From Candidatus Omnitrophota bacterium (GTDB taxonomy: Bacteria; Omnitrophota; Gorgyraeia; Gygaellales; Profunditerraquicolaceae): a DNA stretch of 58,167 nt. Each line of letters begins with the position of its first letter. The stretch's first letter is position 1. A program made the position numbers and the translations under genes. Shown here piece by piece: positions 37,367 through 54,330 of the stretch. Below the pieces are notes generated by a model, which saw only the letters and a program-made list of their open reading frames with translations, was not told where the DNA came from and ran no database searches. The stretch lies in contig JAKQWZ010000024.1 in NCBI GenBank assembly GCA_029561735.1, positions 1 to 58,167 on the forward strand, given 5' to 3'.

Positions 37367-39307
37367 CTATGCACGAATTGATTTGAGGAATTTCGCGAGG
37401 TCTTTCTTGTCGGCCTTGCTTAAGCCTGAAAATTCAATACCGACTTTATACTGCTTTTTAAAATGATTTTTCGGCTCTGCTTCGCTGATCCAGGCAACCC
37501 TGCCAACGAGTTCAAGATTTTTTTTCCGGGTTGGGATCTTCAGCCGGACAACCAGTTTTGAATCAGTGGGCATTCTCTTATCAGAAGTAAAACATAATCC
37601 GCCTATGGATATATCAATCCCTTTGCCGTCATTGCTGCCAAACTGCGGATGCAAAATTTCAATCTGCCCGCGATAAATAAACCTTGTATTACGCCTTTTG
37701 TTAGCTCCGATATTAATTTTCTGCATCCTGATATTAGCCGGTACGTTCTGTGCAAAACCCTTAAAAGATTCGGTTGGAAAATCAATTAACCCGATATTAA
37801 AGAAAATATTATTCATTCCGGATTTCTGAAGGAACCTGCCCAGCCGCGCCTTTAATGAACCTGCCAATCTGGATGCCTGGGCCGGGTGGCTTGCCACAAA
37901 AATAACCCCGCATTCGCCCTCTTTAAAATCAGATATAAATAGGCGGCAGTCTTCTGTATTGCAGAGCTCTTTCAATACCTGCTCAATCAGCTTAATTATC
38001 CTGTTGAGCAGCCTCTGGTTGCGCCTGCCCAAAATTGATTGGAATTCTTTGTACCGGATAATCTTGACATTTAAAAGATAAAGCGCAAAGCCTTTCTTAA
38101 TCAGATCATTTATCTTGCTGCGGTTATCTTTATTCAGGACATTTGCAGTATAAAGCCTGGGGATAGTAAAATAAAATTTACTGCCTACGCCGGGGACAGA
38201 GTCCACCCAGATATCGCCGTTTATAATTTTAAGCAGCTCTTTGACTATTGATAAACCCAACCCGATTCCCCTGTTTTTTCCCGCAGCAGTATTAGATATT
38301 TGCAAAAACCTGTCAAAAATCTTCTGCTGGTCCTGTTTAGAAATACCAACGCCGGTATCAATGACCCCAAACCTGACCTTATCTTCAAATATTTTTACCT
38401 CTACCTGAACGCTGCCTCCTTCTTCGGTAAACTTTAATGCATTATCTATCAGGTTTATTAAAATCTGGGTTAATCTTTCCGCATCCACAAATATGTTCAA
38501 ATGCCGGTTAAAGAATTTACAAGACAGGATGATCCTTTTTTCCAAGGCAATCCTGTTAAAATGCTCAATAAGCTCTTTTACCAGATCTTTGATATTAATA
38601 AGCGAATAACACAGCCTGATCTTGCCTTTTTCAATGCGGGATATTTCCAGCAATTCCTCTATTATCTTATTCAGCCTTTCAGTACTGTCCTTTGCTTTTT
38701 GCAAAATATTCTTTTGCGATGGGTTAAGCTCGCCCTTAACACCGTCCAGGGCCAGAGTAACCGCTTCTTTGGCTATTGCCAAAGGAGTCCGCAATTCATG
38801 AGAAACCACAGAAATAAAATCAGTTTTTAACCGGTCTATTTCGCGCAATGATTCCAGCTGCTTTTTCATCTTCTCGCCCTGCCTGCGCAAAGCTTCCAAC
38901 TGCTGGCGGTGGGTAATATCCCGGGTAATCCCTATTAAGCCGATAATCCGCCCCTTCTCATCAAAACGCGGCACCTTTGTCGTTGAAACATAATTATCCA
39001 CGCCGTCCGGCCGCGTCGCCCTTTCAACCTTATCAATTATTGGCTTGCCTTTTTCCATTACCATACGGTCGTCTTTAGCCATCATCATTGCGCGCTCGCG
39101 TGGAAAAAAATCAAAATCGCTTTTTCCGGATACCTGCCCCGGCTCAAGGCCCAAGCCGCGGGCATGCGCCTTATTTACATAAATAAGTTTTCCTTTTTTA
39201 TCCTTAAAATATATAACATCAGGTACATTGTCCATCAGCTCCTGAAAAAGAACGCATTTTACTTTAGATCCCAAGCTCGTGGATTTAAGTGGTTTCTTTC
39301 TGCTCAT
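37367..39307 (-). CDS. Cytoplasmic PAS histidine kinase with degenerate GGDEF-like and C-terminal PilZ domain
   Basis: PAS (NVPDVIYFKD), VSHELRTPL, NLIDNALKF, GIGLGL. PilZ motifs RRNTR (RxxxR) and DISIGG (DxSxxG). Confidence 0.88.
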   Translation of the reverse strand: MSRKKPLKSTSLGSKVKCVLFQELMDNVPDVIYFKDKKGKLIYVNKAHARGLGLEPGQVSGKSDFDFFPRERAMMMAKDDRMVMEKGKPIIDKVERATRPDGVDNYVSTTKVPRFDEKGRIIGLIGITRDITHRQQLEALRRQGEKMKKQLESLREIDRLKTDFISVVSHELRTPLAIAKEAVTLALDGVKGELNPSQKNILQKAKDSTERLNKIIEELLEISRIEKGKIRLCYSLINIKDLVKELIEHFNRIALEKRIILSCKFFNRHLNIFVDAERLTQILINLIDNALKFTEEGGSVQVEVKIFEDKVRFGVIDTGVGISKQDQQKIFDRFLQISNTAAGKNRGIGLGLSIVKELLKIINGDIWVDSVPGVGSKFYFTIPRLYTANVLNKDNRSKINDLIKKGFALYLLNVKIIRYKEFQSILGRRNQRLLNRIIKLIEQVLKELCNTEDCRLFISDFKEGECGVIFVASHPAQASRLAGSLKARLGRFLQKSGMNNIFFNIGLIDFPTESFKGFAQNVPANIRMQKINIGANKRRNTRFIYRGQIEILHPQFGSNDGKGIDISIGGLCFTSDKRMPTDSKLVVRLKIPTRKKNLELVGRVAWISEAEPKNHFKKQYKVGIEFSGLSKADKKDLAKFLKSIRA

Positions 39308-40938
39308 TTTTTGCTCACTCTAAGTATATACTCATTGCCTTCAACGTGAAGCTTCTCTATCTTAAAGCCATAGCCTTTAAAACGCTCAAGCGTGCTTACT
39401 ATGCCTTTAGAAACTATGCAATAAGTAATTTTCTGTTCTTCCAGAAATCTTCTTGCATTTTCGTCAGTGTCAAGCACCGGTATCGGATGCGGGCTGAAAA
39501 ATGGCTTACCACCTATAATAATAACCGCCACCGGCATATCCGTGCCAAACCTTACCCCTCTGACAAACATCTTTGAGCAAAGAATCCTTCCCTGCACTTT
39601 ATGATTTTTAAGCAGGTATTCACAGGCCTTTTTGCTGGAAACCGAGCTCAAATAACTGTTGCTGGAAAGAAAGGCAAAGCCGATAAGCATTGGAACAAAA
39701 AGCGAAATCAGGCAGATATTCAACATATACTTCTTCTTGATAATTGAGTAAACCATTGCAGCCATCAGCAAAAGCTCGAACCCGGCAAAGACATAGACCG
39801 GTACACGCGAAGGCACATAGTCCGGATACTTAAAAGAACCTATTATCAAGGCAAAAGGAAATAATATTAGCAGTACCCATAATCCGGCTGACAATACCGT
39901 TATAAGCTTTCTTTTGAGGGTTATGCAATCATCAAGAAAATCTGCGGTGATTATAGCCAGCGCAGGAAACATCGGCAGGATATAGCTGACCAGTTTGGAA
40001 TGAGCAAACTGGAATGCCAGAAACACCATGAGTATCCAGCTGGCTAAAAATAAATATACCGGAGCGGCTTTTGAGATGATTTTCTTAATCAGATGCCAAA
40101 AGGCAAATAAAACAAATAAAGACCACGGGAACATACAGGCAATTAATGAAAATGGGTAAAAATACCAGGTGTCATTGCCGGCATGCTCAGAAGCTAACAG
40201 GCGCCTGATATGGTCATTGACAAAAAACTCCCTTATAAAAATATCCCCGTATTTATGGTAAATATAGATGTACCACGGCAAAGATATTGCCGAAAATATT
40301 ACAACACCCGCTAAAGAGGCACGGCAGAATATAAAACTGATTTCTTTTCTTAATAACAAGAATAATATAACTGCGGCCAGCGGGATTATCAGCCCTAACG
40401 GCCCCTTGGTCAAAACCGCCAAGGCCGTAAAGACAAAGAATCCTATTATTGCCGGCGTCTTTCTTTTTTTATCAGAATATCCCAGATAAAACGATACCAG
40501 CGACAAAAGAATAAAAACCGAAAAAATCATGTCTGTAAACACCGTGCGGGTCATTCCCACGTAAAACCCTGCGGAAGACAAAATCAAGCCGGAAATAAAA
40601 GCCTTTCTGTTATCCTTAAATGCGGCAAAGGCCAGCAGGTACACTGCCAGGACCCCGATCATACCAAACACCGCCGGAAAAAATCTTGAGCCAAAACTGG
40701 TCACGCCGAATACCAGAAAAGAAACCCGCAGCAGCCAGTAAGTCAAAATCGGCTTTTCAAACTGCGGCTGGTCAAAAAGATACGGCACCAGCCACGTCTT
40801 TTGAGCAGCCATTTCCTTGGCTGTCTGGACATAAAATACTTCGTCAGGGTTAGTCAGGCTAAGGATTCCATTTCCTAGCATCAGATACACATAAGAAATA
40901 ACTAATAGAATCAAAATATTTTTAAAATTAATCCTCAT
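39304..40938 (-). CDS. ArnT/GT39 (PMT_2) lipid-linked glycosyltransferase
   Basis: PDEVFY, FEKPILTYW, SRFFPA, TDMIF, LTKGPLG, LPWY and SKLVSYILP motifs. Confidence 0.88.
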   Translation of the reverse strand: MRINFKNILILLVISYVYLMLGNGILSLTNPDEVFYVQTAKEMAAQKTWLVPYLFDQPQFEKPILTYWLLRVSFLVFGVTSFGSRFFPAVFGMIGVLAVYLLAFAAFKDNRKAFISGLILSSAGFYVGMTRTVFTDMIFSVFILLSLVSFYLGYSDKKRKTPAIIGFFVFTALAVLTKGPLGLIIPLAAVILFLLLRKEISFIFCRASLAGVVIFSAISLPWYIYIYHKYGDIFIREFFVNDHIRRLLASEHAGNDTWYFYPFSLIACMFPWSLFVLFAFWHLIKKIISKAAPVYLFLASWILMVFLAFQFAHSKLVSYILPMFPALAIITADFLDDCITLKRKLITVLSAGLWVLLILFPFALIIGSFKYPDYVPSRVPVYVFAGFELLLMAAMVYSIIKKKYMLNICLISLFVPMLIGFAFLSSNSYLSSVSSKKACEYLLKNHKVQGRILCSKMFVRGVRFGTDMPVAVIIIGGKPFFSPHPIPVLDTDENARRFLEEQKITYCIVSKGIVSTLERFKGYGFKIEKLHVEGNEYILRVSKK

Positions 40939-41686
40939 GCAGGCTCTCCTCTTGTATTTTTAAAAGCTCGGAAACAGTCACAGGCCGGTAACCCATTTCC
41001 CGCAGCTGCTCAACCAGCCGGAAAATAGCCCTCACTGTCTCTTTTCTGTCCCCGCCTTCCGGCTTAAAAACTCCTCCGCTGTCATGAAAAAGAATAATGT
41101 CTCCCGGGCGCACATGCTTTAAAACGTATTTTCTTAAAAACTGGTCATCAAACCGTACCCAGTCTTTGGTATTGATAGACCATAAGACAACGGTAAACCC
41201 CATATCTGCAATGAGGCGTTTTTCATTTTTGGAAAGCCATGCCTTGGGCGGGCGGAAAAGCCTGGTCTCTTTTCCGGTAACGCTCTTAATAATCTCTGCG
41301 GTATGCAAAATGTCGCTTTTAAGCCACTGGGGGTCTGAAAACATTATTACTTTGTGGCTGTAAGTATGCACCCCTACATCGTGGCCTTCGTTGGCAACGC
41401 GGCGGGCAATATCCGGGTATTTTTCAACATGCTCGCCCACCATAAAAAATGTGGCCTTGGCTTTTGATTTTTCAAGTTCAATCAGAATACGCGGCGTCCA
41501 ATCCTCTGACGGTCCGTCATCAAAAGTAATCGCAACCACTTTCTCATGGACATGTGCCCGGAAAAAAGTCTTCTTGCGCACAAAGACTGCCTGATCAACA
41601 AAGATAGTAAAAACAACAAACAGCAATACCGCCGCTGAAGAGGCCAGGCTTGCCCTAAAAATAAATTTTTTTCTGCTTTTTTTCAT
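40928..41686 (-). CDS. Polysaccharide deacetylase (NodB/CE4) with N-terminal TM
   Basis: TFDDGP, HTYSH, FRPP and LFHD motifs. Confidence 0.9.
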   Translation of the reverse strand: MKKSRKKFIFRASLASSAAVLLFVVFTIFVDQAVFVRKKTFFRAHVHEKVVAITFDDGPSEDWTPRILIELEKSKAKATFFMVGEHVEKYPDIARRVANEGHDVGVHTYSHKVIMFSDPQWLKSDILHTAEIIKSVTGKETRLFRPPKAWLSKNEKRLIADMGFTVVLWSINTKDWVRFDDQFLRKYVLKHVRPGDIILFHDSGGVFKPEGGDRKETVRAIFRLVEQLREMGYRPVTVSELLKIQEESLHED

Positions 41687-41784
41687 AAGGCTTATATTTT
41701 AACACATATAAATCCTGATGCAATGAAAAACGGCCCGCCGAGATTTTTGTTGCGTTATGCGGATTTTAGGGTAAAATTAAAAAT

Positions 41785-42516
41785 ATGCGGGCAAATATTA
41801 AATTTATCTCAATAAGCGCAGGAATAGTAATTGTTTTAGCGCTGATAATATTTGCCTACCCCCTGCCCCAGTGGTTAAATAGAAACCATAGAAGTAACTT
41901 ACGCGAGAGAATATTACGCGGGGTTGCCTGGTTTGATTTTGGGCCGCATACCAACCTGTCCGAGTGGGAAGAAAAGATTTTTCAGGGCAGGGTCCAGTAC
42001 TCTATTAAATCCGACAAAAAAGGCACCTATCTTGACGCCTACAGTAAAAACGCCGCATCAGGAATAATTTACTGGCTGAAGTTCTCTCCGGTATCCAACC
42101 CGATGGTCAGCTGGAAATGGAAAGTGGTAAAATTCCCGCAAAAATCTCCGGCTGTGCAAACAGATAACTGGTGGATTGAAAAAGATGACTACGCTGCCAG
42201 GTTTTATGTTATATTCCCCCGTTTCCCCTTTTTTAGGATGCAATGCCTGGAATATGTCTGGGACCAATACCTTCCGGCTGAAACTATAATCACCAATCCT
42301 AATTTCAGCAATTTAAAAATCATTGTCGCTGAATCCGGAATAAAAAACCAGGGGAAATGGGTAACTGTAGAACGCAATATTTATCAGGATTTTAAAAAGG
42401 CCTTTGGCAGTGCGCCGGGTGAAGTCGGAGCGATAGCAATTATGACCGACTCCGACAATTCAGCCAGCGTTGCCGAGGCGCAGTACAACGATATCGAGGT
42501 GGGATATGGAAAGTAA
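41785..42516 (+). CDS. DUF3047-domain protein
   Basis: WKWKV, DDYAARFYV, LEYVWD and AIAIMTDSDN motifs; N-terminal TM. Confidence 0.82.
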   Translation: MRANIKFISISAGIVIVLALIIFAYPLPQWLNRNHRSNLRERILRGVAWFDFGPHTNLSEWEEKIFQGRVQYSIKSDKKGTYLDAYSKNAASGIIYWLKFSPVSNPMVSWKWKVVKFPQKSPAVQTDNWWIEKDDYAARFYVIFPRFPFFRMQCLEYVWDQYLPAETIITNPNFSNLKIIVAESGIKNQGKWVTVERNIYQDFKKAFGSAPGEVGAIAIMTDSDNSASVAEAQYNDIEVGYGK

Positions 42517-42919
42517 TAAAAGAAGGCGCAAGTACATGGGCACACCGTTTCAAAACAAACTGCTTTTTCTGGTATTTGCTTCAGCGGTAATACCAGCGGC
42601 AATAGTCACGCTATGTTTATACTACCTTATTTTTAACACCCTTGCCTGGCAAATGGTCATCCCTGAATCAATCGCATACAACCTGATACCTGTCCTGCAA
42701 AAAGTAAACCTTATTCTGGCTATTGCTGTTCCGATAAGCCTGCTGATCATCTGGTTTATAGCGCTTGAGCTTTCCCACCGGGTAGCCGGCCCCCTCTACC
42801 GTTTGGAAAAAGAACTGGATGAAAGGATAAATAAAACCAAACACGGGGAGATCCGATTGCGGGAAAAAGACGAATTTAAATCCCTGGCCGGAAAGATAAA
42901 CAAATTAATAGTAAAGTAA
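42506..42919 (+). CDS. Two-TM protein with C-terminal HAMP-like domain and no output domain
   Basis: ATG at 42506 follows GAGGTGG; SHRVAGPLYRL...IRLREKDEF..LA..INKL pattern. Confidence 0.72.
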   Translation: MESNKRRRKYMGTPFQNKLLFLVFASAVIPAAIVTLCLYYLIFNTLAWQMVIPESIAYNLIPVLQKVNLILAIAVPISLLIIWFIALELSHRVAGPLYRLEKELDERINKTKHGEIRLREKDEFKSLAGKINKLIVK

Positions 42920-42931
42920 TTTAAATCCCGC

Positions 42932-44161
42932 TTAACGCAGGCACAATTTTAACAACTCCACAACACTAACCAGGTCCTTATCGCTTAGAAAAACACTTGT
43001 GGATAAAGTAATATGTCTCATCGCGATACTGCGGGCATTAGGGCAATCCCGCACCGGGACAATACCCCGCAGATAATCATAATCACAGACAGGCTTGGCG
43101 TAAATGCGGGAAAAACCTAGGCCTGAACTCTCCAGTTTTGGCAAGATCTTATCCCTCTTAACCGCATCTTCTATCAAACAGGTAATAAAAGGATAATTGG
43201 AAATACTCTCAGGCAATTCCGTAATTAATTTTACATTGTTCAACCGGCTTAACCGGTCTATATAGAACCGGGCTTTTGTCCTTTGCCTGCGGATATTTTC
43301 CTCCAGCCTGCCGAATTGCTGCAAGGCCAGCTTTTTCCTGAAATCAGAAATCCGGTGGACTTCAAAATCAGGACTAAACTCTTCAATCATAGCCTTAAGC
43401 GGCCTGCCTCTTAAACGCCAATAAATATTAGGAAGCCGGAAAATATACCAAAACCCCATGGGCCGGTAAAATGCCCAATACCCGAAGATCTCAAAAATCT
43501 TTAAAGCCTCATTAAATTTATTTTCATTGAATAAATTCCGGAATGCATCATCCAGTGCTTGGACAAATTTATCCCTGCGGGTTACGGCAATTCCGCCTTC
43601 ATACAGGGTCATGCCTTTACCGCGGCAAAGGCTGAAAAAAGAAAAATCCCCTAAAGAGCCGGACTGAATACCCTGATAAACCGCACCCATTGATTGGGCG
43701 CAATCCTCAATAATAAAAATGCCGTATCTTGAAGCAATCGCTTTTATCCGCTCCATATCCAAAGGCAAACCGGCAATATGCGCCACGGTTATTGCCAATA
43801 TATCGGTATTGTCAGAACAGGCCTTTTCCAGAAGCGCATAATCAAAATCAAACCTGTCAGGAGCGATATCGCAGACCTCAATTTTTAACCCGGCGCGGTT
43901 TATTGCCAAAGGCACAAGCGGGCAGACAAAAGACGGGATAATCACAGTTCTGCGCAAAGACAGTAATTTCAATGCCTCCAAAATAAGGAAAAAGGCTGCT
44001 GTTCCGGAATTAACTGCTTTTGAATACATCGCGCCAAGATAAGCGCTGAATACCGCCTCAAAATCGGGGTCAAATTTACGGGATTTGCCATACGAGGCAA
44101 TAATGTCGCCGAGATTTACAGGCCAGCCGGCAGTAGGGGGAATTTCTCTGATTATGCTCAT
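42932..44161 (-). CDS. DegT/DnrJ/EryC1/StrS (ArnB-like) PLP aminotransferase
   Basis: NSGTAA, IEDCAQSMG, GDFSFFSLCRGKGMTLYEGG (Schiff-base Lys retained). Confidence 0.85.
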   Translation of the reverse strand: MSIIREIPPTAGWPVNLGDIIASYGKSRKFDPDFEAVFSAYLGAMYSKAVNSGTAAFFLILEALKLLSLRRTVIIPSFVCPLVPLAINRAGLKIEVCDIAPDRFDFDYALLEKACSDNTDILAITVAHIAGLPLDMERIKAIASRYGIFIIEDCAQSMGAVYQGIQSGSLGDFSFFSLCRGKGMTLYEGGIAVTRRDKFVQALDDAFRNLFNENKFNEALKIFEIFGYWAFYRPMGFWYIFRLPNIYWRLRGRPLKAMIEEFSPDFEVHRISDFRKKLALQQFGRLEENIRRQRTKARFYIDRLSRLNNVKLITELPESISNYPFITCLIEDAVKRDKILPKLESSGLGFSRIYAKPVCDYDYLRGIVPVRDCPNARSIAMRHITLSTSVFLSDKDLVSVVELLKLCLR

Positions 44162-44250
44162 CTTTTAGGATTCGGTAAAATTAGGTATTGCCTTTATTTG
44201 TTTTTATTCTATAATAAAACATCACCGCATACAAGGAGTAATCTTTAAAA

Positions 44251-44676
44251 ATGCCTGCAAGCAAAAACATAACTTTTAAGCTTTTTCTTTTCCTTATCTC
44301 AACGGACTTCCTGGAAACATTCACCCATTATTGTTTTAAACGCAGCGCCATGCCCCAGTCCGGATTTCAGGTGCTTAATATCGGCGACGCTTTCATGTTC
44401 GCCAAAATAAGCGCCCTCTCGCCTTTTCTCTGGCTTGGCCTTTTATCGGTACTATTGACCTTTATTATCTGGTCAACCATCCTGACCAAAATAGACTTAA
44501 GCGTGGCAGTACCTATAGCAAGTTTCAGCTATGTATTCATACCTTTAGTATCAATGGTGTTCTTGCACGAAACAATCGGCCCCTTAAGATGGACAGGAAT
44601 AGCTTTTATCCTTACCGGCGTGATTCTAGTCTCATTATCCAGCAAAGAAAAAGAAAAGGAGGCCCAAACTCCATGA
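44251..44676 (+). CDS. EamA/SMR-type (ArnE/F-like) small transporter
   Basis: Four TM helices; KIDLSVAVP...FLHETIGPLRWTG motif. Confidence 0.82.
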   Translation: MPASKNITFKLFLFLISTDFLETFTHYCFKRSAMPQSGFQVLNIGDAFMFAKISALSPFLWLGLLSVLLTFIIWSTILTKIDLSVAVPIASFSYVFIPLVSMVFLHETIGPLRWTGIAFILTGVILVSLSSKEKEKEAQTP

Positions 44677-45053
44677 GGCCGGGAATAATTTTTATTATCA
44701 GCCTGATCGTGCTTGAAAATATATTTGATACTCTAAGAGAGCTTATCCTAAAAACAGCGATCAACAACCTAAAAATCGAACGTTATACAATAAAAAATAT
44801 CATCGCCTTTATACTCAAGCTTATTTCAAACCCGTGGATATACCTGGCGCTTTTATTTAGCACCCTTTCTCTTTTTCTCTGGCTATTCATACTTTCAAGG
44901 ATAGATCTCAGCCTTGCCTTTTCCCTTGACAGCATGCATTATATTTTTATTGCTTTTGCTTCCGGTTTGTTTTTAAAAGAAAAACTGGGGGCCTTGCGCT
45001 GGTTGGGGACCATTTCTATAGTAATAGGTATAGTATTAGTTGCGTTTAGTTAA
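44673..45053 (+). CDS. Second EamA/SMR-type (ArnE/F-like) small transporter
   Basis: ATG at 44673 (ATGA overlap, GGAGG SD); RIDLSLAF...FLKEKLGALRWLG motif. Confidence 0.82.
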   Translation: MRPGIIFIISLIVLENIFDTLRELILKTAINNLKIERYTIKNIIAFILKLISNPWIYLALLFSTLSLFLWLFILSRIDLSLAFSLDSMHYIFIAFASGLFLKEKLGALRWLGTISIVIGIVLVAFS

Positions 45054-46544: not shown

Positions 46545-46551
46545 AAATATT

Positions 46552-47388
46552 TTAATGGCTGTTCAGGAAATCAATTATCTCTTTGGCAACCCTGTCTTTA
46601 TCAAGGTCAATAGTAACCATATGGTAGCTGTTGGTTAATTCAATCAGCGCTTTATCTTTTGAACCGATATGGCTGTATACATATTTTGCGTTTTTAATGC
46701 TAGTCATATCGTCTTCTTTGGCGTGAATAATGAGGATGGGGCAATTTATCCGGGGCAATTCATTCTTAACCTGCCTGGCTAGAATATGGTGCTGATAAAG
46801 GCAGGCCAGGGGGAAAAACGGGCTGCCGAACAGCAGGACCTTATTGTCAAATTTTTTAGCCAGAGCGCCTTTATAAAACCTTTCAATCTGAGAACGCAAA
46901 GACTCGTCTTTAAGCCCGTACGGCCAGCCTTCGCGGATATCAATCATATTACGCAGGACAGGTATATGCCAGACCAGGTCCATTAAGGCCTTGCCCTTAT
47001 GCAATGCCCAGCCGTCATAAAACAAAGTCGGCGCTAAAGCTATTAAGCCGCTTATCCGCTGCGGGTATTTATAAGCCAAATGCATGGACATAACCGCTCC
47101 CATGGATAAGCCTCCGGCAAAGACCTTGCGATAATCGTTATTCAGCCTTATTAAATCGTTTTCGCAGGCAGCGGCAATTTCCTGCCAAGTCACTTTCTTA
47201 AGCTCGCCTAAAGTACTGCAGTGCCGCGGCAGGGTATTGCACATTACACTAAATCCGGCCTTATTCAGCGCTTTTGCCTGATAACGCATCTCCGAAGGCG
47301 TTCCGGTGATGCCGTGGATCAAAAGCACTGCCTTGTCACTATTGCCTTTGAGGAAAAAATTGAATTTATTTGCTGGATTATCTTCCAT
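46552..47388 (-). CDS. Alpha/beta-hydrolase (esterase/thioesterase)
   Basis: HGITG oxyanion motif, GLSMG nucleophile elbow, EDDM Asp and SYHM His. Confidence 0.88.
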   Translation of the reverse strand: MEDNPANKFNFFLKGNSDKAVLLIHGITGTPSEMRYQAKALNKAGFSVMCNTLPRHCSTLGELKKVTWQEIAAACENDLIRLNNDYRKVFAGGLSMGAVMSMHLAYKYPQRISGLIALAPTLFYDGWALHKGKALMDLVWHIPVLRNMIDIREGWPYGLKDESLRSQIERFYKGALAKKFDNKVLLFGSPFFPLACLYQHHILARQVKNELPRINCPILIIHAKEDDMTSIKNAKYVYSHIGSKDKALIELTNSYHMVTIDLDKDRVAKEIIDFLNSH

Positions 47389-47434
47389 AATGGTTTTTAA
47401 TTATAGCACAAAACATGCTTAAATAAACTTTTTA

Positions 47435-47462
47435 TTGTCCTGACATATTTTTTTGCTATACT
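47435..47462 (+). promoter_or_regulatory. Promoter TTGTCC-N16-TATACT with TG extension, 6 nt before the GNAT ATG
   Basis: ttgtcc tgacatatttttttgc tatact acacct ATG; no SD. Confidence 0.5.
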
Positions 47463-47468
47463 ACACCT

Positions 47469-48665
47469 ATGCATTTAACAGCCAACCAGCTTAGCGTATC
47501 GCTGATAAGCTCCGCCCGGGGCATCCCCCAACAGGATTGGGATCGCTTATTCGGCGCTAATTGCCTTGACAGCCGCGATTACCATATCGCGCTTGAAGAC
47601 GCAAAAATGCCCGAATTTGAACTGAGGTACCTTACTGTCAGCCGCAACAGTTCTTTAATAGCGGTTTTTCCGTTTTTCATCATGGATTTCTCCTTTACTA
47701 CTATAATACAGGGGAAGATACAAAAAATTATCTTTGCATTACAAAAAATATTTAAAAATTTTCTTAAAATAAAACTGCTTTTTATAGGCTTCCCTACCAC
47801 AGAAGAGCTCTGTATAGGCATAGACAAAACCGAGGATTACAACATGCTATCAGAGCTGGCGCTGGATAAATTCATGCAGTTCATCAAAGAGAAAAAAATC
47901 AATAACCTGCTTTATTACAATGTAACCGCCAACCAGTCCGGATTGGCCGCCTTGCTGGATAAAAAAGGTTTTGTGCGCATGGAAAATTTTCCCAATGCCC
48001 GGTTAAAAATACGCTCTGATTCCCTGGAAGGCTTTATTCAAGGCCTGAGTAAAAATATGCGCAAGAGCCTTAAAAAGAAATTAAGGTTGTCCCACGAGGC
48101 AGGTGACCTGAAAATTGAAGTGGCCGAAGACATAAACGGGGCGTATCCTGATATCTACAGGCTCTATATGAATAATTTTAATAATTCAAACGTGCGCCTG
48201 GAAACGCTCACCCCTGAATTTTTTCAAAACATCTGCAGGAATATGCCGGGAAAAGCCAAAATAATCCTGACCCGCCATAACACTAAATTGGTGGCTTTTA
48301 ACCTGTGCATCCTTAATGATGATACCTTTATTGATAAGGTGATAGGGTTTGACGATGAAGCGAGCCGCAGGTTTAATCTTTATTACACTACATTCTGCTA
48401 TAACCTGGAGTGGTGCATAAAAAACGGTTACCGCAATTACCAGCTGGGCATAATTGATTACCACCCTAAAATCCGGCTGGGCGCAGAACTGATACCGCTA
48501 TATATCTATTTTAAATCAACAAAGCCCTTGATGAATTTTCTGGCAAAAAAACTTGCCCGGTTCATTGAGCCTAAGAATTTTGACCCCACCCTAAAGCTCC
48601 TTGCCCGTAAATCTGCCCAAAACAAGGCAGGCATTGTTCCCTCCGAAAGCCGAAGCGCTGTTTAA
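47469..48665 (+). CDS. FemAB-like / GNAT-family acyl- or aminoacyl-transferase
   Basis: IPQQDWD, LRYL..., LSKNMRKSLKKKL and YQLG...YHPKIRLGAEL pattern; 398 aa. Confidence 0.72.
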   Translation: MHLTANQLSVSLISSARGIPQQDWDRLFGANCLDSRDYHIALEDAKMPEFELRYLTVSRNSSLIAVFPFFIMDFSFTTIIQGKIQKIIFALQKIFKNFLKIKLLFIGFPTTEELCIGIDKTEDYNMLSELALDKFMQFIKEKKINNLLYYNVTANQSGLAALLDKKGFVRMENFPNARLKIRSDSLEGFIQGLSKNMRKSLKKKLRLSHEAGDLKIEVAEDINGAYPDIYRLYMNNFNNSNVRLETLTPEFFQNICRNMPGKAKIILTRHNTKLVAFNLCILNDDTFIDKVIGFDDEASRRFNLYYTTFCYNLEWCIKNGYRNYQLGIIDYHPKIRLGAELIPLYIYFKSTKPLMNFLAKKLARFIEPKNFDPTLKLLARKSAQNKAGIVPSESRSAV

Positions 48666-49820
48666 AGCAATATCCACCTGTTTTTTGCGGGCTTGATTAG
48701 GCACGCAATCTATATCAATCTGCGGATCAGGAGTTTCAAAATTTATTGTAGGAGGAATAATGCCTTCTTGAATAGCCATACAGCAGGCTATTGTCTCTAA
48801 TGCCGAAGCTGCGCCCATAGTATGCCCCAGCATTGACTTGATTGAACTAACGGCGATTTTCTTATAATTATCTCCGAAGATGTTTTTTATGGCCTGCCCT
48901 TCCTCCCTGTCATTTGCCGGAGTGCCTGTGCCGTGCGCATTAAAATAATCCACCTCTTGAGCAGATACTCCGCTGTGCTTAAGCGCATTGCTAATGGAGC
49001 GCGCAATGCCATCGGCCTGCGGAGCAGTCATATGGTGCGCGTCGCAACTTATTCCGTAACCAAAAAGCTCGGCATAGATATGCGCCTTTCTTTTCAATGC
49101 ATTTTCAAGGGCCTCCATAATTATTATGCCTGCGCCTTCAGCCACCATCATGCCTTTTCTGTTTTTATCAAACGGCTGGCATTTTTCAGGCGCAACTGCA
49201 AACATCCGGTTAAATCCGATAAAGGCTATCCGGGAAAAAGCATCAGATCCTCCCACCAGCATCATATCTGCTTGGCCTGAGCTTATCAGGTCGCTTGCAT
49301 AACCAGCGGCAAAATTTGCCGCTGCGCAGGCATTAGGAATAGTCAGATTAGGCCCTTTGAGGTTATATTCTATAGCTAAATTGGCGGATAAAACATTGCA
49401 CGGATAACGGCAGATAAGCAGCGGATCCACGGCATCAGCGCCTTTGCGTATCCAGGCGTCATTGAGGACTTCAAGCACCTGCGATTCTCCCATTGTCGTG
49501 CCAAGGCAAACCCCGGTTTTCTGTTCATCCAAATCAGAAAGCTTTAATCCGGCGTCAACAAGGGCTAGTTTTGCCGCACTGAGAGTAAATTGCGAAGCGC
49601 GCCCGAGCATTGCGGATTTTCTCCGGCTCATAAATCTTAAAGGGTCAAAATTCTTAATCTCCCCGCCTTTATGAGTTGGGAATGCGCTGGTATCCAAAGA
49701 TTCAATCCTGCTGATCCCGGACTTCCCCCGGATAAGCGCATTCCAGAAATCATCCTTTCCGATGCCTATAGAAGTGACTGCGCCTAAACCGGTGATAACT
49801 ATGCGTTTTTTATTTTGCAT
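48591..49820 (-). CDS. fabF: Beta-ketoacyl-ACP synthase II (active KS)
   Basis: RIVITGLG; catalytic Cys in NACAAAN; His in AHGTGT; His in KSMLGH. ATG at 49820. Confidence 0.9.
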   Translation of the reverse strand: MQNKKRIVITGLGAVTSIGIGKDDFWNALIRGKSGISRIESLDTSAFPTHKGGEIKNFDPLRFMSRRKSAMLGRASQFTLSAAKLALVDAGLKLSDLDEQKTGVCLGTTMGESQVLEVLNDAWIRKGADAVDPLLICRYPCNVLSANLAIEYNLKGPNLTIPNACAAANFAAGYASDLISSGQADMMLVGGSDAFSRIAFIGFNRMFAVAPEKCQPFDKNRKGMMVAEGAGIIIMEALENALKRKAHIYAELFGYGISCDAHHMTAPQADGIARSISNALKHSGVSAQEVDYFNAHGTGTPANDREEGQAIKNIFGDNYKKIAVSSIKSMLGHTMGAASALETIACCMAIQEGIIPPTINFETPDPQIDIDCVPNQARKKQVDIALNSASAFGGNNACLVLGRFTGKEL

Positions 49821-50250
49821 CTTCTTTGGCCACAAAGCTCAATTCGCCGGAAGCGACTTCTGTATCAGCGACAAAGGCTTGGGCTTTGACGATTGCGGCA
49901 TTAGAGAGGATCTTCAGGGGTTCAATAACCAGCTTTAGCTGGTCGCCGGGCGTGACCGGCCGGGAAAACCTCACTTTAACTGCGCCTAAATAATAAATCA
50001 TGTCCTTTTCTTTAAGAGAAACCTTGCTTTCGTAAAAAAGGATTATAGAAGCCTGGGCCATGGCTTCTATAATTAACACGCCGGGCATAACAGGCCTGCC
50101 CGGAAAATGGCCTCCGAAAAATTCCTCATTAAAACTGATATTCTTTATAGCGACTACCCTTTTCTTCGGCTCAAGCTCTAAGATGCGGTCAATCATTACA
50201 AAAGGAAAACGCTGCGGAAGTATTTTGAATATTTCCTCAATATTAAGCAT
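49810..50250 (-). CDS. fabZ: 3-hydroxyacyl-ACP dehydratase
   Basis: LPQRFPFVMIDR, GHFPGRPVMPGVLIIEAMAQ motifs. Confidence 0.9.
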   Translation of the reverse strand: MLNIEEIFKILPQRFPFVMIDRILELEPKKRVVAIKNISFNEEFFGGHFPGRPVMPGVLIIEAMAQASIILFYESKVSLKEKDMIYYLGAVKVRFSRPVTPGDQLKLVIEPLKILSNAAIVKAQAFVADTEVASGELSFVAKEDAK

Positions 50251-50497
50251 GGTTGTCCTTTTTAGCCAGATTTTCTTTTACTACGGCCAAGGTATCATTT
50301 AAAGTCTTAAATTCCGCAAGCTTCTCTTCGGGAATAGATATCTTATACTTTTTCTCTATAGCAGCCAGGATTTCCAGCGCCATCATAGAATCCATGCCTA
50401 AGTCCTCCACAAACCTGGAATCCGGCTTAATCTCATCCGGAGTTTTCTCCACTATCTGCGCTACTAAATCCCTTATTTGCGTATCAATATCCTGCAT
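50243..50497 (-). CDS. acpP: Acyl carrier protein
   Basis: DLGMDSM phosphopantetheine motif; acidic; 84 aa. Confidence 0.92.
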   Translation of the reverse strand: MQDIDTQIRDLVAQIVEKTPDEIKPDSRFVEDLGMDSMMALEILAAIEKKYKISIPEEKLAEFKTLNDTLAVVKENLAKKDNHA

Positions 50498-50524
50498 CTG
50501 TTTCCTCCTTAATTAGCGCCGCTG

Positions 50525-51274
50525 TTATATTTTTATGGATAAACCGCCGTCAACCACTATGACCTGCCCGGTTATAAAACCGGCTGAATCGCTAAGCAAG
50601 AATCTTACTGCCTGCGCCACCTCAATTGCCTTGCCAAACCTGCTTAAAGGTATATTGGCAAGCATTGCTTCTTTATATTCCGGCTTTAAAGCGCTGACCA
50701 TATCAGTATCAATAAAACCCGGGGCCACGGCATTTACCCGGATATTATAAGCAGCTGTTTCCCGGGCCAGCGAACGCGTAAAGCCGATTATCCCGGCCTT
50801 TGATGAAGCGTAATTAACCTGCCGGCTCAAGCCGGTCATGCCGCTGACTGAAGTAATATTGACTATCCGGCCGCTTTTCTGTTTTAAAAAAGTAACTATT
50901 GCCTGCCGAGAAACATTAAACGTCCCGGTCAAATTAGTGTTTATGACATCGCCCCAGTCCTCTTTAGTCATAAACATCAGGGCTTTATCACGGGTAATGC
51001 CGGCATTATTAACTAAAATGTCAAGCCTGCCAAAAGCCTCTTTAGTCTTTTCAATTAAGGCCTTGGCCTGCTCAAAATCCGATGAGTCAATCTTTAAAGC
51101 CAGGGCCTTTGCGCCTTTATTGGTTATCTGAAGGGATAATTCCCGTGCCAGGGCCTCGTTGTTTAAATAAGTAAAAACCACAGCCGCCCCTTCATCAGCC
51201 AGCATCAAAGCTATTTCTTTGCCTATGCCTCTTGAGGCGCCTGTGACTATGGCTACTTTATCTTTAAAAATCAT
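50525..51274 (-). CDS. fabG: 3-oxoacyl-ACP reductase
   Basis: TGASRGIG, NNAG and YASSK motifs. Likely ATG at 51274. Confidence 0.9.
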   Translation of the reverse strand: MIFKDKVAIVTGASRGIGKEIALMLADEGAAVVFTYLNNEALARELSLQITNKGAKALALKIDSSDFEQAKALIEKTKEAFGRLDILVNNAGITRDKALMFMTKEDWGDVINTNLTGTFNVSRQAIVTFLKQKSGRIVNITSVSGMTGLSRQVNYASSKAGIIGFTRSLARETAAYNIRVNAVAPGFIDTDMVSALKPEYKEAMLANIPLSRFGKAIEVAQAVRFLLSDSAGFITGQVIVVDGGLSIKI

Positions 51275-51278
51275 ATTT

Positions 51279-52520
51279 TCATCCTGCGAATTTTGAAATG
51301 ACCATTGCCGCATTATTGCCGTCCGGCCCAAAGGAATTTATAAGGACATTCTCCAGCTTTATTTGGCGCGGATTGCTCGGCACATAATCCAGCACGCAAT
51401 CCGGGTCTTTTTCCCGGTAGTTGATTGTTGCCGGGACCAACTGGTTCTCCAGCGCCGCTACTGCGGCTGCTGCCTGCATTGAAGCCGAAGCGCTTAGGCA
51501 TTCTCCCAGCATTGACTTAACCGCGCTAACCGGTTTTTTTTCTGCCTGCGCTGCAAAAACTTCCCGTATAGCGTCTGTTTCTATTTTGTCCGCATCAGGG
51601 CTTGAATTGGCCGAAGCCAGAATACAATCTATTTTTTCAACAGGCAGCCCAGCATTGCTTATAGCGCCGCGCATGGATTTTTTTAGCCCTTCTGCAGAGG
51701 CTTTATATTTATTTATCCTGTAAGGGGTAAAAGATACGCCTATGCCGGTAATCTCAGCTAAAATCCTTGCCTTGCGCGCCATGGCTGATTCCAGCCTCTC
51801 CAAGACCATCAGGCAGCACGCCTCTGCTAAAATAATTCCGTTTCGCCTTTTATCAAACGGACAGGAAATTTCCTCTGCCTGTGCCTTTATCCCGGCTAAA
51901 TATTTTGTCCGGTAAAGGCCCAAGAAAGTCTGCTCGGATAACTCCTCAACTCCGCCCGCCAATACAGCCCGGGCCCTGTTATTTTTCAGGTATTCGCAGG
52001 CATATGCAAATGCCTCAAGGCTGCTGGTAAATCCGGAGGAAATAGTGGCATTAAAACCTTTAATATTAAACCTGATAGAAACCTGGCTGGCCGGAGAATT
52101 AATTACTGTATTCGGAAAAAGCGCAGGATTGACATACTGCACGCCTTCTCTGATGGCTTCAGCATCAAAATCACTCATGCTCTTAATACTGCCAAGGGTT
52201 GAACCAATTGCTACCCCGATATCAACGCAATTTTCTTCAGTTATACTTAAAGCTGCGTCATCCAAAGCCATCTTTGCCGCGCAACTAGCTAATTTGGTGC
52301 TGCGGTCCATATTCCGCAGGCCTTTAGGCCCTAGAATATCCTGAGGGGAAAAACCGGATATTTCTCCTGCCAGTTTGGATTTATACCCTGAAGTATCAAA
52401 AAGAGTAATCGGCTTTATTCCGGATATTGATGCGCACATTGCCCTGCCAAAAGCATCTTTACCTGTTGCATTAGGGCAGATTACACCCATACCCGTAATA
52501 ACTATTCGCGTGTCTTTCAT
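51279..52520 (-). CDS. Catalytically inactive ketosynthase homolog (chain-length-factor-like)
   Basis: Full-length KS fold, but the triad positions read SGFTSS (Cys to Phe), ASANSS (His to Ser) and KSMLGE (His to Glu). Confidence 0.85.
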   Translation of the reverse strand: MKDTRIVITGMGVICPNATGKDAFGRAMCASISGIKPITLFDTSGYKSKLAGEISGFSPQDILGPKGLRNMDRSTKLASCAAKMALDDAALSITEENCVDIGVAIGSTLGSIKSMSDFDAEAIREGVQYVNPALFPNTVINSPASQVSIRFNIKGFNATISSGFTSSLEAFAYACEYLKNNRARAVLAGGVEELSEQTFLGLYRTKYLAGIKAQAEEISCPFDKRRNGIILAEACCLMVLERLESAMARKARILAEITGIGVSFTPYRINKYKASAEGLKKSMRGAISNAGLPVEKIDCILASANSSPDADKIETDAIREVFAAQAEKKPVSAVKSMLGECLSASASMQAAAAVAALENQLVPATINYREKDPDCVLDYVPSNPRQIKLENVLINSFGPDGNNAAMVISKFAG

Positions 52521-52559
52521 AATATTGAGTAATTATTATATTACCAATAAGGCTGCTTC

Positions 52560-53492
52560 TCAAGCAGATTCTAGGGCTTTAAGGATGGCAATATTTGTCG
52601 CCTGATTAATAGAGTTTATCTGTTGCGGCGATTTATTTTTCGCGTTATAGCCAGTTGGATGGTCAAGCCGGGATATAAGCGATTTAAAAATACTGCTGAA
52701 ACCCGGTTGCGAATATTCTCCTGTTATATCCAAGCCTACTATATCCAAATGGCCCCTGATTTGGCCCAACAATAACAATAACATGCTTAAGGGCATACGC
52801 CCTTCTTCCCAATTCGTGCAAGCCGCATCAGCGCTTAAACAGTCCTTATCTATGCTCACATAAGTTTTTCTGGCCTCAAGCCGCGGCAACAATTGAGGAA
52901 TAAGATTATCCGGGTTAATATTTTTCAGCTGATTCCAGTTTATAACGGTTGAAAATAATTTTTTTGTTAACCTGACTGACACATTGGGGGCAAGCCTGCG
53001 CAAAAAAACACGGGTCGGCTCATGTTCATAAGGATAAATTTCAATCCTGTTATCTTTAAGCCCGGATAAATTTGCGCTTTTGATAGCCGGCCAGGAAATA
53101 TCCTGTGAAGAAATACCCAATAATATTATTTTTTTAATATTCGGCTGTTCCAGCGCCCGGCTGACCCATGAACCACAGCCGAATTTCGGAGGCAGGATAT
53201 CCCAATCCGGATGGTGGTCAAATACGATCAGATTTAACGGTTCCTTAAATTGCTCCAAAAGCAGGCTGGTAACATTATGGTAATCTCCGGAACCAAGAAA
53301 TGTAACGGCATTTTTCAACTCCGGGCCTAATGCAGAGCTTATTGCTTGGCACGTTTTTCTATTCATCCACATCCGTGCATCTGAAGAAAACCGGGTCAGA
53401 TCAACTATGTGCGCAGAGTAACCGGATACAAGCTGTTCTTGCAGCAATAGGCTGTTATCAAAATTAAGTATCCGGGGGGTTTTTGAAAGCAT
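52560..53492 (-). CDS. Arginase/ureohydrolase-fold metalloenzyme
   Basis: GSGDYH, FDHHPD (DxHxD) and SIDKD (DxD) metal ligands. Confidence 0.8.
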   Translation of the reverse strand: MLSKTPRILNFDNSLLLQEQLVSGYSAHIVDLTRFSSDARMWMNRKTCQAISSALGPELKNAVTFLGSGDYHNVTSLLLEQFKEPLNLIVFDHHPDWDILPPKFGCGSWVSRALEQPNIKKIILLGISSQDISWPAIKSANLSGLKDNRIEIYPYEHEPTRVFLRRLAPNVSVRLTKKLFSTVINWNQLKNINPDNLIPQLLPRLEARKTYVSIDKDCLSADAACTNWEEGRMPLSMLLLLLGQIRGHLDIVGLDITGEYSQPGFSSIFKSLISRLDHPTGYNAKNKSPQQINSINQATNIAILKALESA

Positions 53493-53553
53493 TAAGGCGA
53501 GTTTTAATCCGTTTATGCTTACTGCTTAAATTAACCGGCTTTTGCCTGTGTTC

Positions 53554-54228
53554 TTACGCCAGCTTCCTCAAATAGCCCAACACATCGGCAAATCCGTTAA
53601 AAGCAATACAAAATCTTTTCTTTCTTTTAAGGAATTTCAGCAGGTATCCTTTTGCGAAAACTATACCGGCTTCCTGCGCCGGGCATACATCCGAGTGGCC
53701 GTCGCCGACATACATTAAGATTTTATCGCGGAACTCCTGTTTTTTCAATTGATTCTTCTTGCAGTGGCCGCATTTACCGCATTTATTATTGGAATACGGG
53801 AAAGACGGTATCACCTTAGAGCCGCTGAATTTAAGGGTATTGGCAAAGATCCTGACTCCCTTGATCCCGTTAGATTTTAATATGCGCCTGATGATAAATG
53901 AAAAACTATCACTTAAAATAACCGGGGTTATGCCTTTTTGTTTTAGAAATAAGACCAATTTATCAAAATCAGGCAAGAGCCTCACTGTGGATAGATACTC
54001 ATCCAGCTGCTGGGTAGAAATCCTGACTTTAGACAACTGCCTTTTCAGGCATTCTTTAGAGCCTATTTTTCCGGATTTCCAAAGCCTCTCGGTTTTCTCC
54101 CAATCCCTGCTAATTGAAAATCTTCTGATCAACCCGTCAAGGACATCAAACGTAGTGATAGTATTATCAAAATCAAAAAATATGCGGCTATCTGAAATCT
54201 TATGCAATCTTAAGGGCGGCTGCTTCAT
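53554..54228 (-). CDS. MtnX-like HAD-IB phosphatase
   Basis: FDFDNTIT motif I, SD motif II, CxxCGxCK cap and GDGHSD motif IV. Confidence 0.85.
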   Translation of the reverse strand: MKQPPLRLHKISDSRIFFDFDNTITTFDVLDGLIRRFSISRDWEKTERLWKSGKIGSKECLKRQLSKVRISTQQLDEYLSTVRLLPDFDKLVLFLKQKGITPVILSDSFSFIIRRILKSNGIKGVRIFANTLKFSGSKVIPSFPYSNNKCGKCGHCKKNQLKKQEFRDKILMYVGDGHSDVCPAQEAGIVFAKGYLLKFLKRKKRFCIAFNGFADVLGYLRKLA

Positions 54229-54267
54229 AATTGGAGTAATTATATATCAGGCAGGGCCTGTCCGCAA

Positions 54268-54301
54268 TAAAAAAAGCGCCTCCTGCCAAGGCAGGAAGCG
54301 C
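54268..54301 (-). terminator. Intrinsic terminator after the 54331-54825 gene
   Basis: Minus strand GCGCTTCCTGCC-TT-GGCAGGAGGCGC, then a T tract. Confidence 0.8.
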
Positions 54302-54330
54302 CTAAAACCTCCAGGGAGTTTATCAGCCAG

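Follow-up and report, generated by a model that had tools for sequence, protein, structure and literature searches.

Omnitrophota are widespread, uncultured and often ultra-small bacteria whose envelope chemistry is little known. The window analysed here is the whole of a stretch of 58,167 nucleotides from one such organism, Candidatus Omnitrophota bacterium (assembly GCA_029561735.1, contig JAKQWZ010000024.1), whose genome is a 1.2-Mb bin, 82% complete. An initial annotation had proposed that the 17 contiguous genes at 39304-54228 make up a single amino-lipid surface-modification pathway. All 17 are open where that annotation placed them, and each fits the family it had named, as judged from the open reading frame (ORF) listing and from Pfam and NCBIfam matches. 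Comparison of gene neighbourhoods indicates that the block is three separately inherited units, namely a CE4-ArnT pair, a DUF3047/orf149 pair and a set of 13 genes (42932-54228), and that the 13-gene set is in turn a merger of a head-group module and an acyl-chain module, each of which also exists alone. The features of the block are as follows (PLP, pyridoxal phosphate; KS, ketosynthase; ACP, acyl carrier protein).

39304-40938, minus strand: ArnT-like GT-C glycosyltransferase (Pfam PMT/PMT_2; best NCBIfam match ArnT)
40928-41686, minus strand: CE4 deacetylase (polysaccharide or lipid-linked sugar) with an N-terminal membrane anchor (Pfam Polysacc_deac_1, 1e-34)
41785-42516, plus strand: DUF3047 protein (Pfam DUF3047, 1.8e-43)
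42470-42919, plus strand: orf149, a 149-amino-acid membrane protein (no Pfam or NCBIfam match)
42932-44161, minus strand: DegT-family PLP aminotransferase (Pfam DegT_DnrJ_EryC1, 1.2e-51)
44251-44676, plus strand: EamA half-transporter 1, ArnE/F-like (Pfam EamA; best NCBIfam matches ArnE and ArnF, below cut-off)
44589-45053 as listed, likely truly 44673-45053, plus strand: EamA half-transporter 2, ArnE/F-like (Pfam EamA)
45036-46544, minus strand: CrtI/phytoene-desaturase-family flavoprotein (Pfam Amino_oxidase; NCBIfam crtI_fam 182 bits, cut-off 238)
46552-47388, minus strand: alpha/beta hydrolase, monoacylglycerol-lipase-like (Pfam Hydrolase_4; GLSMG nucleophile elbow)
47469-48665, plus strand: Fem/MprF-fold tandem-GNAT transferase, here called Fem-like (Pfam Acetyltransf_6 and FemAB_like)
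48591-49835, minus strand: KS1, active FabF-like ketosynthase (Cys-His-His in sequence)
49810-50250, minus strand: FabZ dehydratase, anammox type (Ile at the tunnel position, QASIIL)
50243-50497, minus strand: dedicated ACP (Pfam PP-binding)
50525-51331, minus strand: FabG-type ketoreductase (NCBIfam TIGR01830 311.7 bits, above the cut-off of 297.75)
51279-52520, minus strand: KS2, catalytically dead FabF-like partner, chain-length-factor-like (Cys and both His replaced)
52560-53492, minus strand: arginase-fold (ureohydrolase) enzyme (Pfam Arginase 37.7 bits, above the 22-bit cut-off)
53554-54228, minus strand: HAD-IB phosphatase, phosphoserine-phosphatase/MtnX-like (NCBIfam TIGR01489 99.9 bits, above the cut-off of 81.55)
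54303-54274, minus strand: intrinsic terminator (13-pair stem with 8 G-C pairs, T-run)

The 17 genes form seven blocks of alternating strand, and the region is therefore a neighbourhood and not one operon. A promoter and terminator scan of the block gave counts no higher than shuffled expectation, the only convincing element being the terminator at 54303-54274, which closes the neighbouring TIGR04073 gene ahead of the HAD gene. A search for a common operator motif in the divergent promoter regions (44162-44250, 47389-47468, 54229-54330 and 41687-41784) found just A/T-rich 8-10-mers shared, which makes no case for co-regulation. For the second EamA gene the most likely start is 44673: it overlaps the EamA1 stop as ATGA, AAGGAGG lies some 10 nt before it, and homologues are 127 amino acids long. 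The gene would then be translationally coupled to the first.

Inheritance of the block

About 80 related loci were compared in all. They include 40 loci with the Fem-like gene (Fem loci), of which 36 come from species-representative genomes, found with an alignment of Fem-like homologues, and four from assemblies; these 40 were examined by tblastn with all window proteins and by clustering of all their ORFs. Genome-level counts refer to 150 genomes drawn from the phylum Omnitrophota, and the Fisher tests made on them ignore phylogeny.

Thirteen of the 17 genes are found together again in other genomes, in three arrangements, which is more than chance would give. The other four are not: all 40 Fem loci lack ArnT, CE4, DUF3047 and orf149, and the proposal of one pathway is thus plausible for the 13 genes and unsupported for the remainder. 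In type A loci (L008, L010, L025) both order and orientation are those of the window: DegT; EamA, EamA; CrtI, hydrolase; Fem; KS, FabZ, ACP, FabG, KS, arginase-fold, HAD. Type B has Fem; arginase-fold, class-III PLP enzyme, HAD, with a complete fatty-acid-synthesis (FAS) operon about 4 kb to the left of DegT, and in type C the CrtI-hydrolase-Fem-FAS genes lie beside the housekeeping plsX-fabH-fabD-fabG-acpP-fabF operon. The head-group module is also found alone, in the order HAD, class-III PLP enzyme, arginase-fold; hydrolase, DegT; Fem, EamA, EamA (L031, L032, L075-L077 and L036), in the window's own family, in others and in one Nitrospirota bin (L036), and the FAS operon is found on its own in seven sampled genomes (L068-L074). 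The core that the initial annotation had singled out for a co-occurrence check, HAD-arginase-GNAT-esterase-EamA-DegT-ArnT, accordingly exists both with the FAS genes (type A, the window, type B) and without them (the stand-alone loci), in each case less its ArnT member.

At the centre of the cluster are the Fem-like transferase and the divergently transcribed hydrolase: some loci combine them with the head-group genes, others with the FAS and CrtI genes, and some with both sets. In 34 of 41 loci the hydrolase gene is the divergent neighbour of the Fem-like gene, and the CrtI-like gene is kept downstream of the hydrolase in 30; the EamA genes are conserved as a pair in 19 loci, with DegT adjoining the pair in 16. 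In the tree of the Fem-like protein, a single 100/100 clade takes in the window and every CrtI- or FAS-linked locus, and the stand-alone head-group versions fall outside it. Across the 150 genomes, the Fem-like gene is present in 24, the arginase-fold gene in 11 and the dead KS in 20. The first two occur together in nine genomes, with the Fem-like gene only in 15 and the arginase-fold gene only in two (Fisher p = 7e-7, uncorrected for phylogeny); within the window's Fem clade, 18 genomes have no arginase-fold gene at the Fem locus, and 16 of these carry it elsewhere. The Fem-like gene and the dead KS are together in seven genomes (p = 0.02, likewise uncorrected). Named-organism homologues of the transferase (168 homologues) and of the arginase-fold protein are almost all labelled Omnitrophota or Omnitrophica.

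Five sampled genomes of the window's GTDB family, among them those of L031, L032 and L075, carry the stand-alone head-group version only, with Fem-like proteins 32-38% identical to that of the window. The place of the window's protein in the FAS-linked clade, as against these relatives, suggests cluster replacement or lateral transfer within the phylum, or else a binning problem. Other versions of the cluster have neighbours of their own. In the Nitrospirota bin (L036:5051-14731), genes for an OmpR-type regulator and a 2CSK_N sensor kinase precede the head-group module, and a TolC-like outer-membrane efflux gene lies between the arginase-fold gene and the hydrolase. At one type B locus (L081, G169:C23:146000-157000), two tandem Cluster-I-type FAS operons and a KS/ACP/CrtI-like set are directly upstream of the cluster. 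A PagL-like outer-membrane gene (lipid A 3-O-deacylase family) adjoins the cluster in seven loci, at varied positions (L008:3704-4441, L009:4749-5456, L010:4304-5041, L025:4618-5271, L022:14324-14905, L031:11943-12533 and L035:17508-18134); the PagL-like gene of the window's genome is on another contig (G000 C47:8524-9132). As proof of a link to lipid A the adjacency is weakened because several loci conserve recG-batD-dus-PagL as a string in its own right.

The CE4-ArnT pair (39304-41686) has a different history. The ArnT-like protein aligns over residues 7-395 with the NCBIfam ArnT model NF009784 at 186.7 bits, short of the cut-off of 567, and the CE4 protein has all its catalytic motifs (TFDDGP, HTYSH, RPP and LFHD). 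An ArnT orthologue, 41-51% identical, is present in ten or about 11 of the 150 genomes, ten being the number used in the co-occurrence tests. CE4 (49-62% identity) lies directly upstream of it in six of nine other loci, no gene of the 13-gene cluster is within 9 kb of it in any of the nine, and its flanks are unrelated (helicase, MFS transporter, CbiM, glycine-cleavage genes, PIG-L deacetylase). Eight of the ten genomes lack the Fem-like gene, the overlap of two being that of chance in a test without phylogenetic correction (Fisher p = 0.5). From the CE4 adjacency, the unrelated flanks and the absence of cluster genes nearby, the pair is judged to be a portable, self-contained, mobile two-gene unit, evolutionarily independent of the 13-gene cluster. 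By analogy with the end-steps of the Arn and Lgm systems, it may act by de-N-acylation of a polyprenyl-phosphate-linked amino sugar and transfer of this sugar to an envelope acceptor.

In the window, a 4-base overlap joins a PAS histidine-kinase gene (37367-39307) to the stop of the ArnT-like gene, implying a single transcript ordered CE4, ArnT-like, kinase; at other loci the gene following the ArnT orthologue differs (MFS transporter, PIG-L deacetylase). The ArnT orthologue and the dead-KS gene share six of the ten genomes (G065, G079, G091, G103, G123 and G149; uncorrected Fisher p = 4e-4), and in G079 and G091 the two are 17-20 kb apart on one contig.

The DUF3047 gene and orf149 (41785-42919), the third unit, have their arrangement in this window only among the related loci. 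There are two paralogues of orf149 on contig C12 (G000 C12:3384-5920), and weak relatives, at 28-29%, adjoin the dead-KS gene at L073:11812-12249 and L074:9113-9499. No NCBIfam family was found for the DUF3047 protein, for orf149, for the Fem-like protein or for the PagL-like proteins.

Enzymes of the two modules

In the acyl-chain module, KS1 keeps Cys-His-His and KS2 has none of the three residues, which makes them a pair of the KS/chain-length-factor type. The best solved relative of KS1 is 9s5h_B (496 bits), ahead of 6kxd, a 'Ketosynthase' like those of type II polyketide synthases (PKS), at 363 bits, a margin of 133; that of KS2 is 9s5h_C (390 bits), the next being at 244 bits, a margin of 146. 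We infer that entries 9S5H/9S5I are the amxFabF2/amxFabFmut heterodimer of bioRxiv 10.64898/2026.05.19.726425, a preprint that does not print the codes. The best solved relatives of the dehydratase are amxFabZ of Scalindua and Kuenenia (7QV0, 8AYB, 8AYI, 8AYC and 8AYD), ahead of canonical FabZ, and those of the ACP are amxACP (7auf/7ax5 and 7qv0_D), the amxFabZ and amxACP entry codes being given in PMC10139942. The QASIIL motif of the window FabZ aligns with the region of amxFabZ Ile69, where a bulky Ile replaces the canonical Gly of the tunnel and whose role was described in PMC10139942. The anammox enzymes prefer short chains, C6-C8, and their genes, Cluster I, have been called exclusive to ladderane producers (PMC10139942; bioRxiv 10.64898/2026.05.19.726425). 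The module contains no enoyl reductase. The best solved relative of the CrtI-like flavoprotein is Pantoea CrtI (4dgk).

The host has a separate housekeeping FabF-ACP-FabG set on contig C17, and G000 C45:187-7530 (L043/L044) carries a third pair, KS and KS-like, together with an ACP of its own and a FabG-like gene, giving three ketosynthase sets in a 1.2-Mb genome. LpxC and the housekeeping FabZ share one 434-amino-acid reading frame, a bifunctional LpxC/FabZ (G000 C51:18729-19988; L080), from which it follows that the organism makes lipid A and that the cluster FabZ is an extra copy.

At the head-group end, the Fem-like protein has 398 amino acids, no transmembrane segment, and matches to Pfam PF13480 and PF04339 only. 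Its AlphaFold2 model (pLDDT 84.7) is a tandem GNAT, which refines the FemAB/GNAT label of the initial annotation. The top Foldseek matches are FemX, Sbb17/Sba18 (aminoacyl-tRNA-dependent peptide synthases), the C-terminal domain of MprF, and FemA; the soluble domains of MprF and other aminoacyl-phosphatidylglycerol synthases (5vrv, 6lv0, 4v34, 4v36) align at TM 0.45-0.5 and E 2e-10 to 1e-8, FemX and Sbb17 being slightly better. With aminoacyl-tRNA-dependent enzymes as the closest folds, aminoacylation is as open as the N-acylation first proposed. No paper was found on the function of the transferase family PF04339/COG3146 beyond a falsified guess: the COG3146 literature comprised an invalidated 'pterin-dependent enzyme' assignment and one GNAT in the argolaphos cluster.

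The arginase-fold protein gave no PDB sequence match, and a fold search was therefore used. Its AlphaFold2 model (pLDDT 86.9) matched agmatinase, formimidoylglutamase and guanidinopropionase, the top hits, at TM about 0.55, and also arginases, all at 10-19% identity; the probability was 1.0 for agmatinases and arginases. The metal ligands D70, H72, D92, H94, D96, D215, D217 and D255 are invariant in 26 sequences. The protein is thus a member of the ureohydrolase superfamily with intact binuclear metal ligands (His, DxHxD, DxD), and it lies outside the characterised subfamilies (agmatinase NF002564, 25 bits against a cut-off of 302).

The remaining enzymes are closer to known ones. The HAD protein has its DxDxT motif as DFDNT and, among solved structures, is closest to phosphoserine phosphatases and MtnX; the hydrolase is closest to bacterial monoacylglycerol lipases, LipS and Est30. 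DegT finds its best NCBIfam matches in the PseC, LegC and ArnB types, all below cut-off, and no PDB sequence match at 1e-25. The class-III PLP enzyme, in-cluster elsewhere, is encoded here at a contig edge (G000 C91:3-1154; L042), with MscS-like and beta-lactamase-family genes after it; the solved structures that match it best are class-III-fold alanine/serine racemases, and it is also like gamma-aminobutyrate transaminase.

Proposed function and its rivals

Gene content, catalytic residues, folds and modular co-occurrence are matters of observation; from them we infer the cluster's substrates, step order, product and destination. With the block divided into three units, the 13-gene cluster may couple an amine head group to a short acyl chain or to an amino acid and then export the product, a reading for which we find the balance of probability even. 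The heterodimer of KS1 and the dead KS2, with FabG, the Ile-tunnel FabZ and the ACP, would build an acyl chain of about C6-C8 without an enoyl reductase, on which the CrtI-like flavoprotein would act. The HAD-IB phosphatase, the arginase-fold enzyme, DegT and the class-III PLP enzyme encoded on C91 would make the amine head group, amino-acid-like or amino-sugar-like. The Fem-like transferase would then form an amide or ester bond, with acyl-ACP or aminoacyl-tRNA as donor, the monoacylglycerol-lipase-like hydrolase would serve for release or editing of the product, and transport over the inner membrane would fall to the ArnE/F-like pair. Enzyme likenesses suggest an amino acid (ornithine, arginine or serine) or an amino sugar as the head group. 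The earlier scheme of a custom acyl chain joined to an amine and then flipped is therefore plausible for 42932-54228, from the modular co-occurrence, and not for the whole block. A more specific version, to which we give a low probability, has the Fem-like protein as an MprF-like, tRNA-dependent arginyl transferase acting on a lipid or on the cluster's short acyl-amine, the arginase-fold enzyme trimming arginine to ornithine, the ArnE/F-like pair flipping the product, and the acyl part coming, in the window's clade, from the Cluster-I-type synthase.

Several observations weigh against joining the two modules in one pathway. They are mostly apart, 13 of the 20 dead-KS genomes being without the Fem-like gene and 17 of the 24 Fem-positive genomes without the dead KS, so that each can function by itself, and inherited synteny could account for their being adjacent in one clade. 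The co-occurrence statistics take no account of phylogeny, and all compared genomes are metagenome bins. Transcription of the Fem-like gene runs towards that of the FAS operon, so the two are not co-transcribed. On the models, the closest folds of the transferase are those of enzymes that use aminoacyl-tRNA, not acyl-ACP. DegT is nearest to families with nucleotide-sugar substrates, yet neither a glycosyltransferase nor a dehydratase for such a substrate is in the cluster, and the class-III PLP enzyme, with racemases as its best relatives, may not be a transaminase.

The main rival holds that two functionally unrelated systems are side by side through inherited synteny: a Cluster-I-like FAS with the CrtI-like enzyme, making a special membrane fatty acid, and a split MprF-like system aminoacylating an existing membrane lipid, for which the phosphatase, ureohydrolase and PLP enzymes supply or trim the amino acid. 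This is on the unlikely side, with a real minority chance. Each module is alone in most sampled genomes, type C loci are inside a conserved housekeeping neighbourhood (plsX-fabHDG-acpP-fabF, rsmD, coaD, recG), the closest folds of the transferase are aminoacyl-tRNA-dependent, and the synthase-hydrolase adjacency is that of aminoacyl-phosphatidylglycerol systems. Against this, no more than about 10 kb separates the FAS operon from the Fem-like gene in any of the three arrangements A, B and C, the CrtI-like gene shares its transcript with the hydrolase and not with the FAS genes, and the transferase has neither a Pfam LPG_synthase_C match nor a membrane domain.

The two other explanations fare less well. 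A single 17-gene pathway, with the ArnT-like enzyme transferring the flipped product onto lipid A or another surface acceptor, would account for the ArnB-, ArnD-, ArnE/F- and ArnT-like genes that all lie within 6 kb in the window, in an organism that makes lipid A, but we consider it improbable: besides the absence of ArnT and CE4 from the Fem loci, the lack of cluster genes around ArnT orthologues and the lack of the Fem-like gene from eight of the ten ArnT-orthologue genomes, the block has no equivalent of ArnA or ArnC, and DUF3047 and orf149, on the opposite strand, divide its two parts. The hand-over of the product to ArnT in the earlier proposal is likewise unsupported, the PagL-like adjacency in seven loci and the co-occurrence of ArnT with the dead KS keeping a small probability for an ArnT link. 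Chances are similarly slim for a small-molecule cluster, in which a reductase-less KS/chain-length-factor pair would make a short polyene chain, an amine would receive it in amide linkage, and the EamA pair would export the product as a diffusible signal or antibiotic instead of a surface lipid. The want of an enoyl reductase, the type II PKS-like 6kxd as second-best solved relative of KS1, the preference of the anammox-type enzymes for short chains, the common role of EamA proteins as metabolite exporters (with a weak NCBIfam match to MdtJ) and the TolC-like gene within the Nitrospirota version are consistent with it; however, the hydrolase is nearest to lipid-ester hydrolases, the EamA halves score highest against ArnE and ArnF, the neighbourhoods are of a lipid and envelope kind, beside housekeeping fab and PagL-like genes, and conservation over a broad clade is that of a core trait rather than of a patchy secondary metabolite.

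The cluster's clade-conserved Fem/MprF-fold transferase, divergent ureohydrolase, lipase-like hydrolase and ArnE/F-like pair point to an undescribed envelope lipid or acyl-amine. All parts are from known superfamilies, and the cluster itself would be a kind of envelope or lipid modification set. Cluster I-type genes are present here in a non-anammox organism, beside a candidate acyl-accepting enzyme, which offers a tractable handle on their product. Were the tRNA-dependent arginine version true, it would amount to making an ornithine-type surface lipid by way of tRNA, and the Cluster I-type synthase would not be ladderane-specific.

Comparison with known systems

No description of this cluster was found in the literature, including work on Omnitrophota lipid gene clusters and on the combination of FemAB, arginase and aminotransferase; its parts can be compared with several systems. 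Anammox Cluster I, KustE3603-3608 of Kuenenia, encodes amxACP, amxFabZ, amxFabF2, amxFabFmut, a phytoene-dehydrogenase homologue and a B12 radical-SAM protein. Shared with it are the active KS with a triad-less partner, the dedicated ACP, the Ile-tunnel FabZ and a CrtI-family flavoprotein, a candidate counterpart of KustE3607. Unlike Cluster I, the window block has no cobalamin-dependent radical-SAM gene in 39304-54228 (type B loci have a YgiQ-type radical SAM nearby, of a different family), FabG is included, the hydrolase and Fem-like genes separate the flavoprotein from the FAS genes, and the host is not an anammox organism. Aryl-polyene clusters were considered and rejected, there being just faint ApeI/ApeP matches on the dehydratase and no other hallmark genes.

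With the Arn system (ArnBCADTEF) and the Bordetella Lgm system the block shares an ArnB-like DegT protein, ArnE/F-like EamA proteins, an ArnD/LgmC-like CE4 protein and an ArnT/LgmB-like GT-C enzyme. It differs in that the scores are far below the NCBIfam equivalog cut-offs and in that CE4-ArnT and DegT-EamA are inherited separately, the two never being found together in 40 + 9 loci. The 17 genes include no ArnA or ArnC/LgmA (formyltransferase/decarboxylase and GT2), the genome's GT2 genes being at C63:25618-26100 and on C24. What looks Arn-like in 39.3-45.1 kb is a chance juxtaposition, and recognition of this guards against annotating these genomes as aminoarabinose modifiers. An exosortase/PEP-CTERM system was likewise rejected, even though a TIGR04073 gene adjoins: the CE4 protein scores 57.6 bits against the TIGR03006 cut-off of 276.2, and the Fem-like protein has no TIGR03019 match.

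A synthase beside an alpha/beta hydrolase is a known layout of aminoacyl-phosphatidylglycerol systems. Like MprF and its relatives, the cluster has a tandem-GNAT fold, an alpha/beta hydrolase next door and a membrane component that could flip the product. In contrast to MprF, the transferase is a separate soluble protein, with no fused membrane flippase domain and no Pfam LPG_synthase_C, the candidate flippase is the ArnE/F-like EamA pair, and there are extra genes for a phosphatase, a ureohydrolase and an aminotransferase.

The ornithine-lipid synthases OlsB and OlsF and the bacterial ceramide synthase bCerS are enzymes of GNAT type that transfer an acyl chain from ACP to an amine. The Fem-like protein has no Acetyltransf_5 or OlsB match, and the likeness is a works-like analogy only, within which an ornithine-like head group would suit the presence of the arginase-fold and class-III PLP enzymes.

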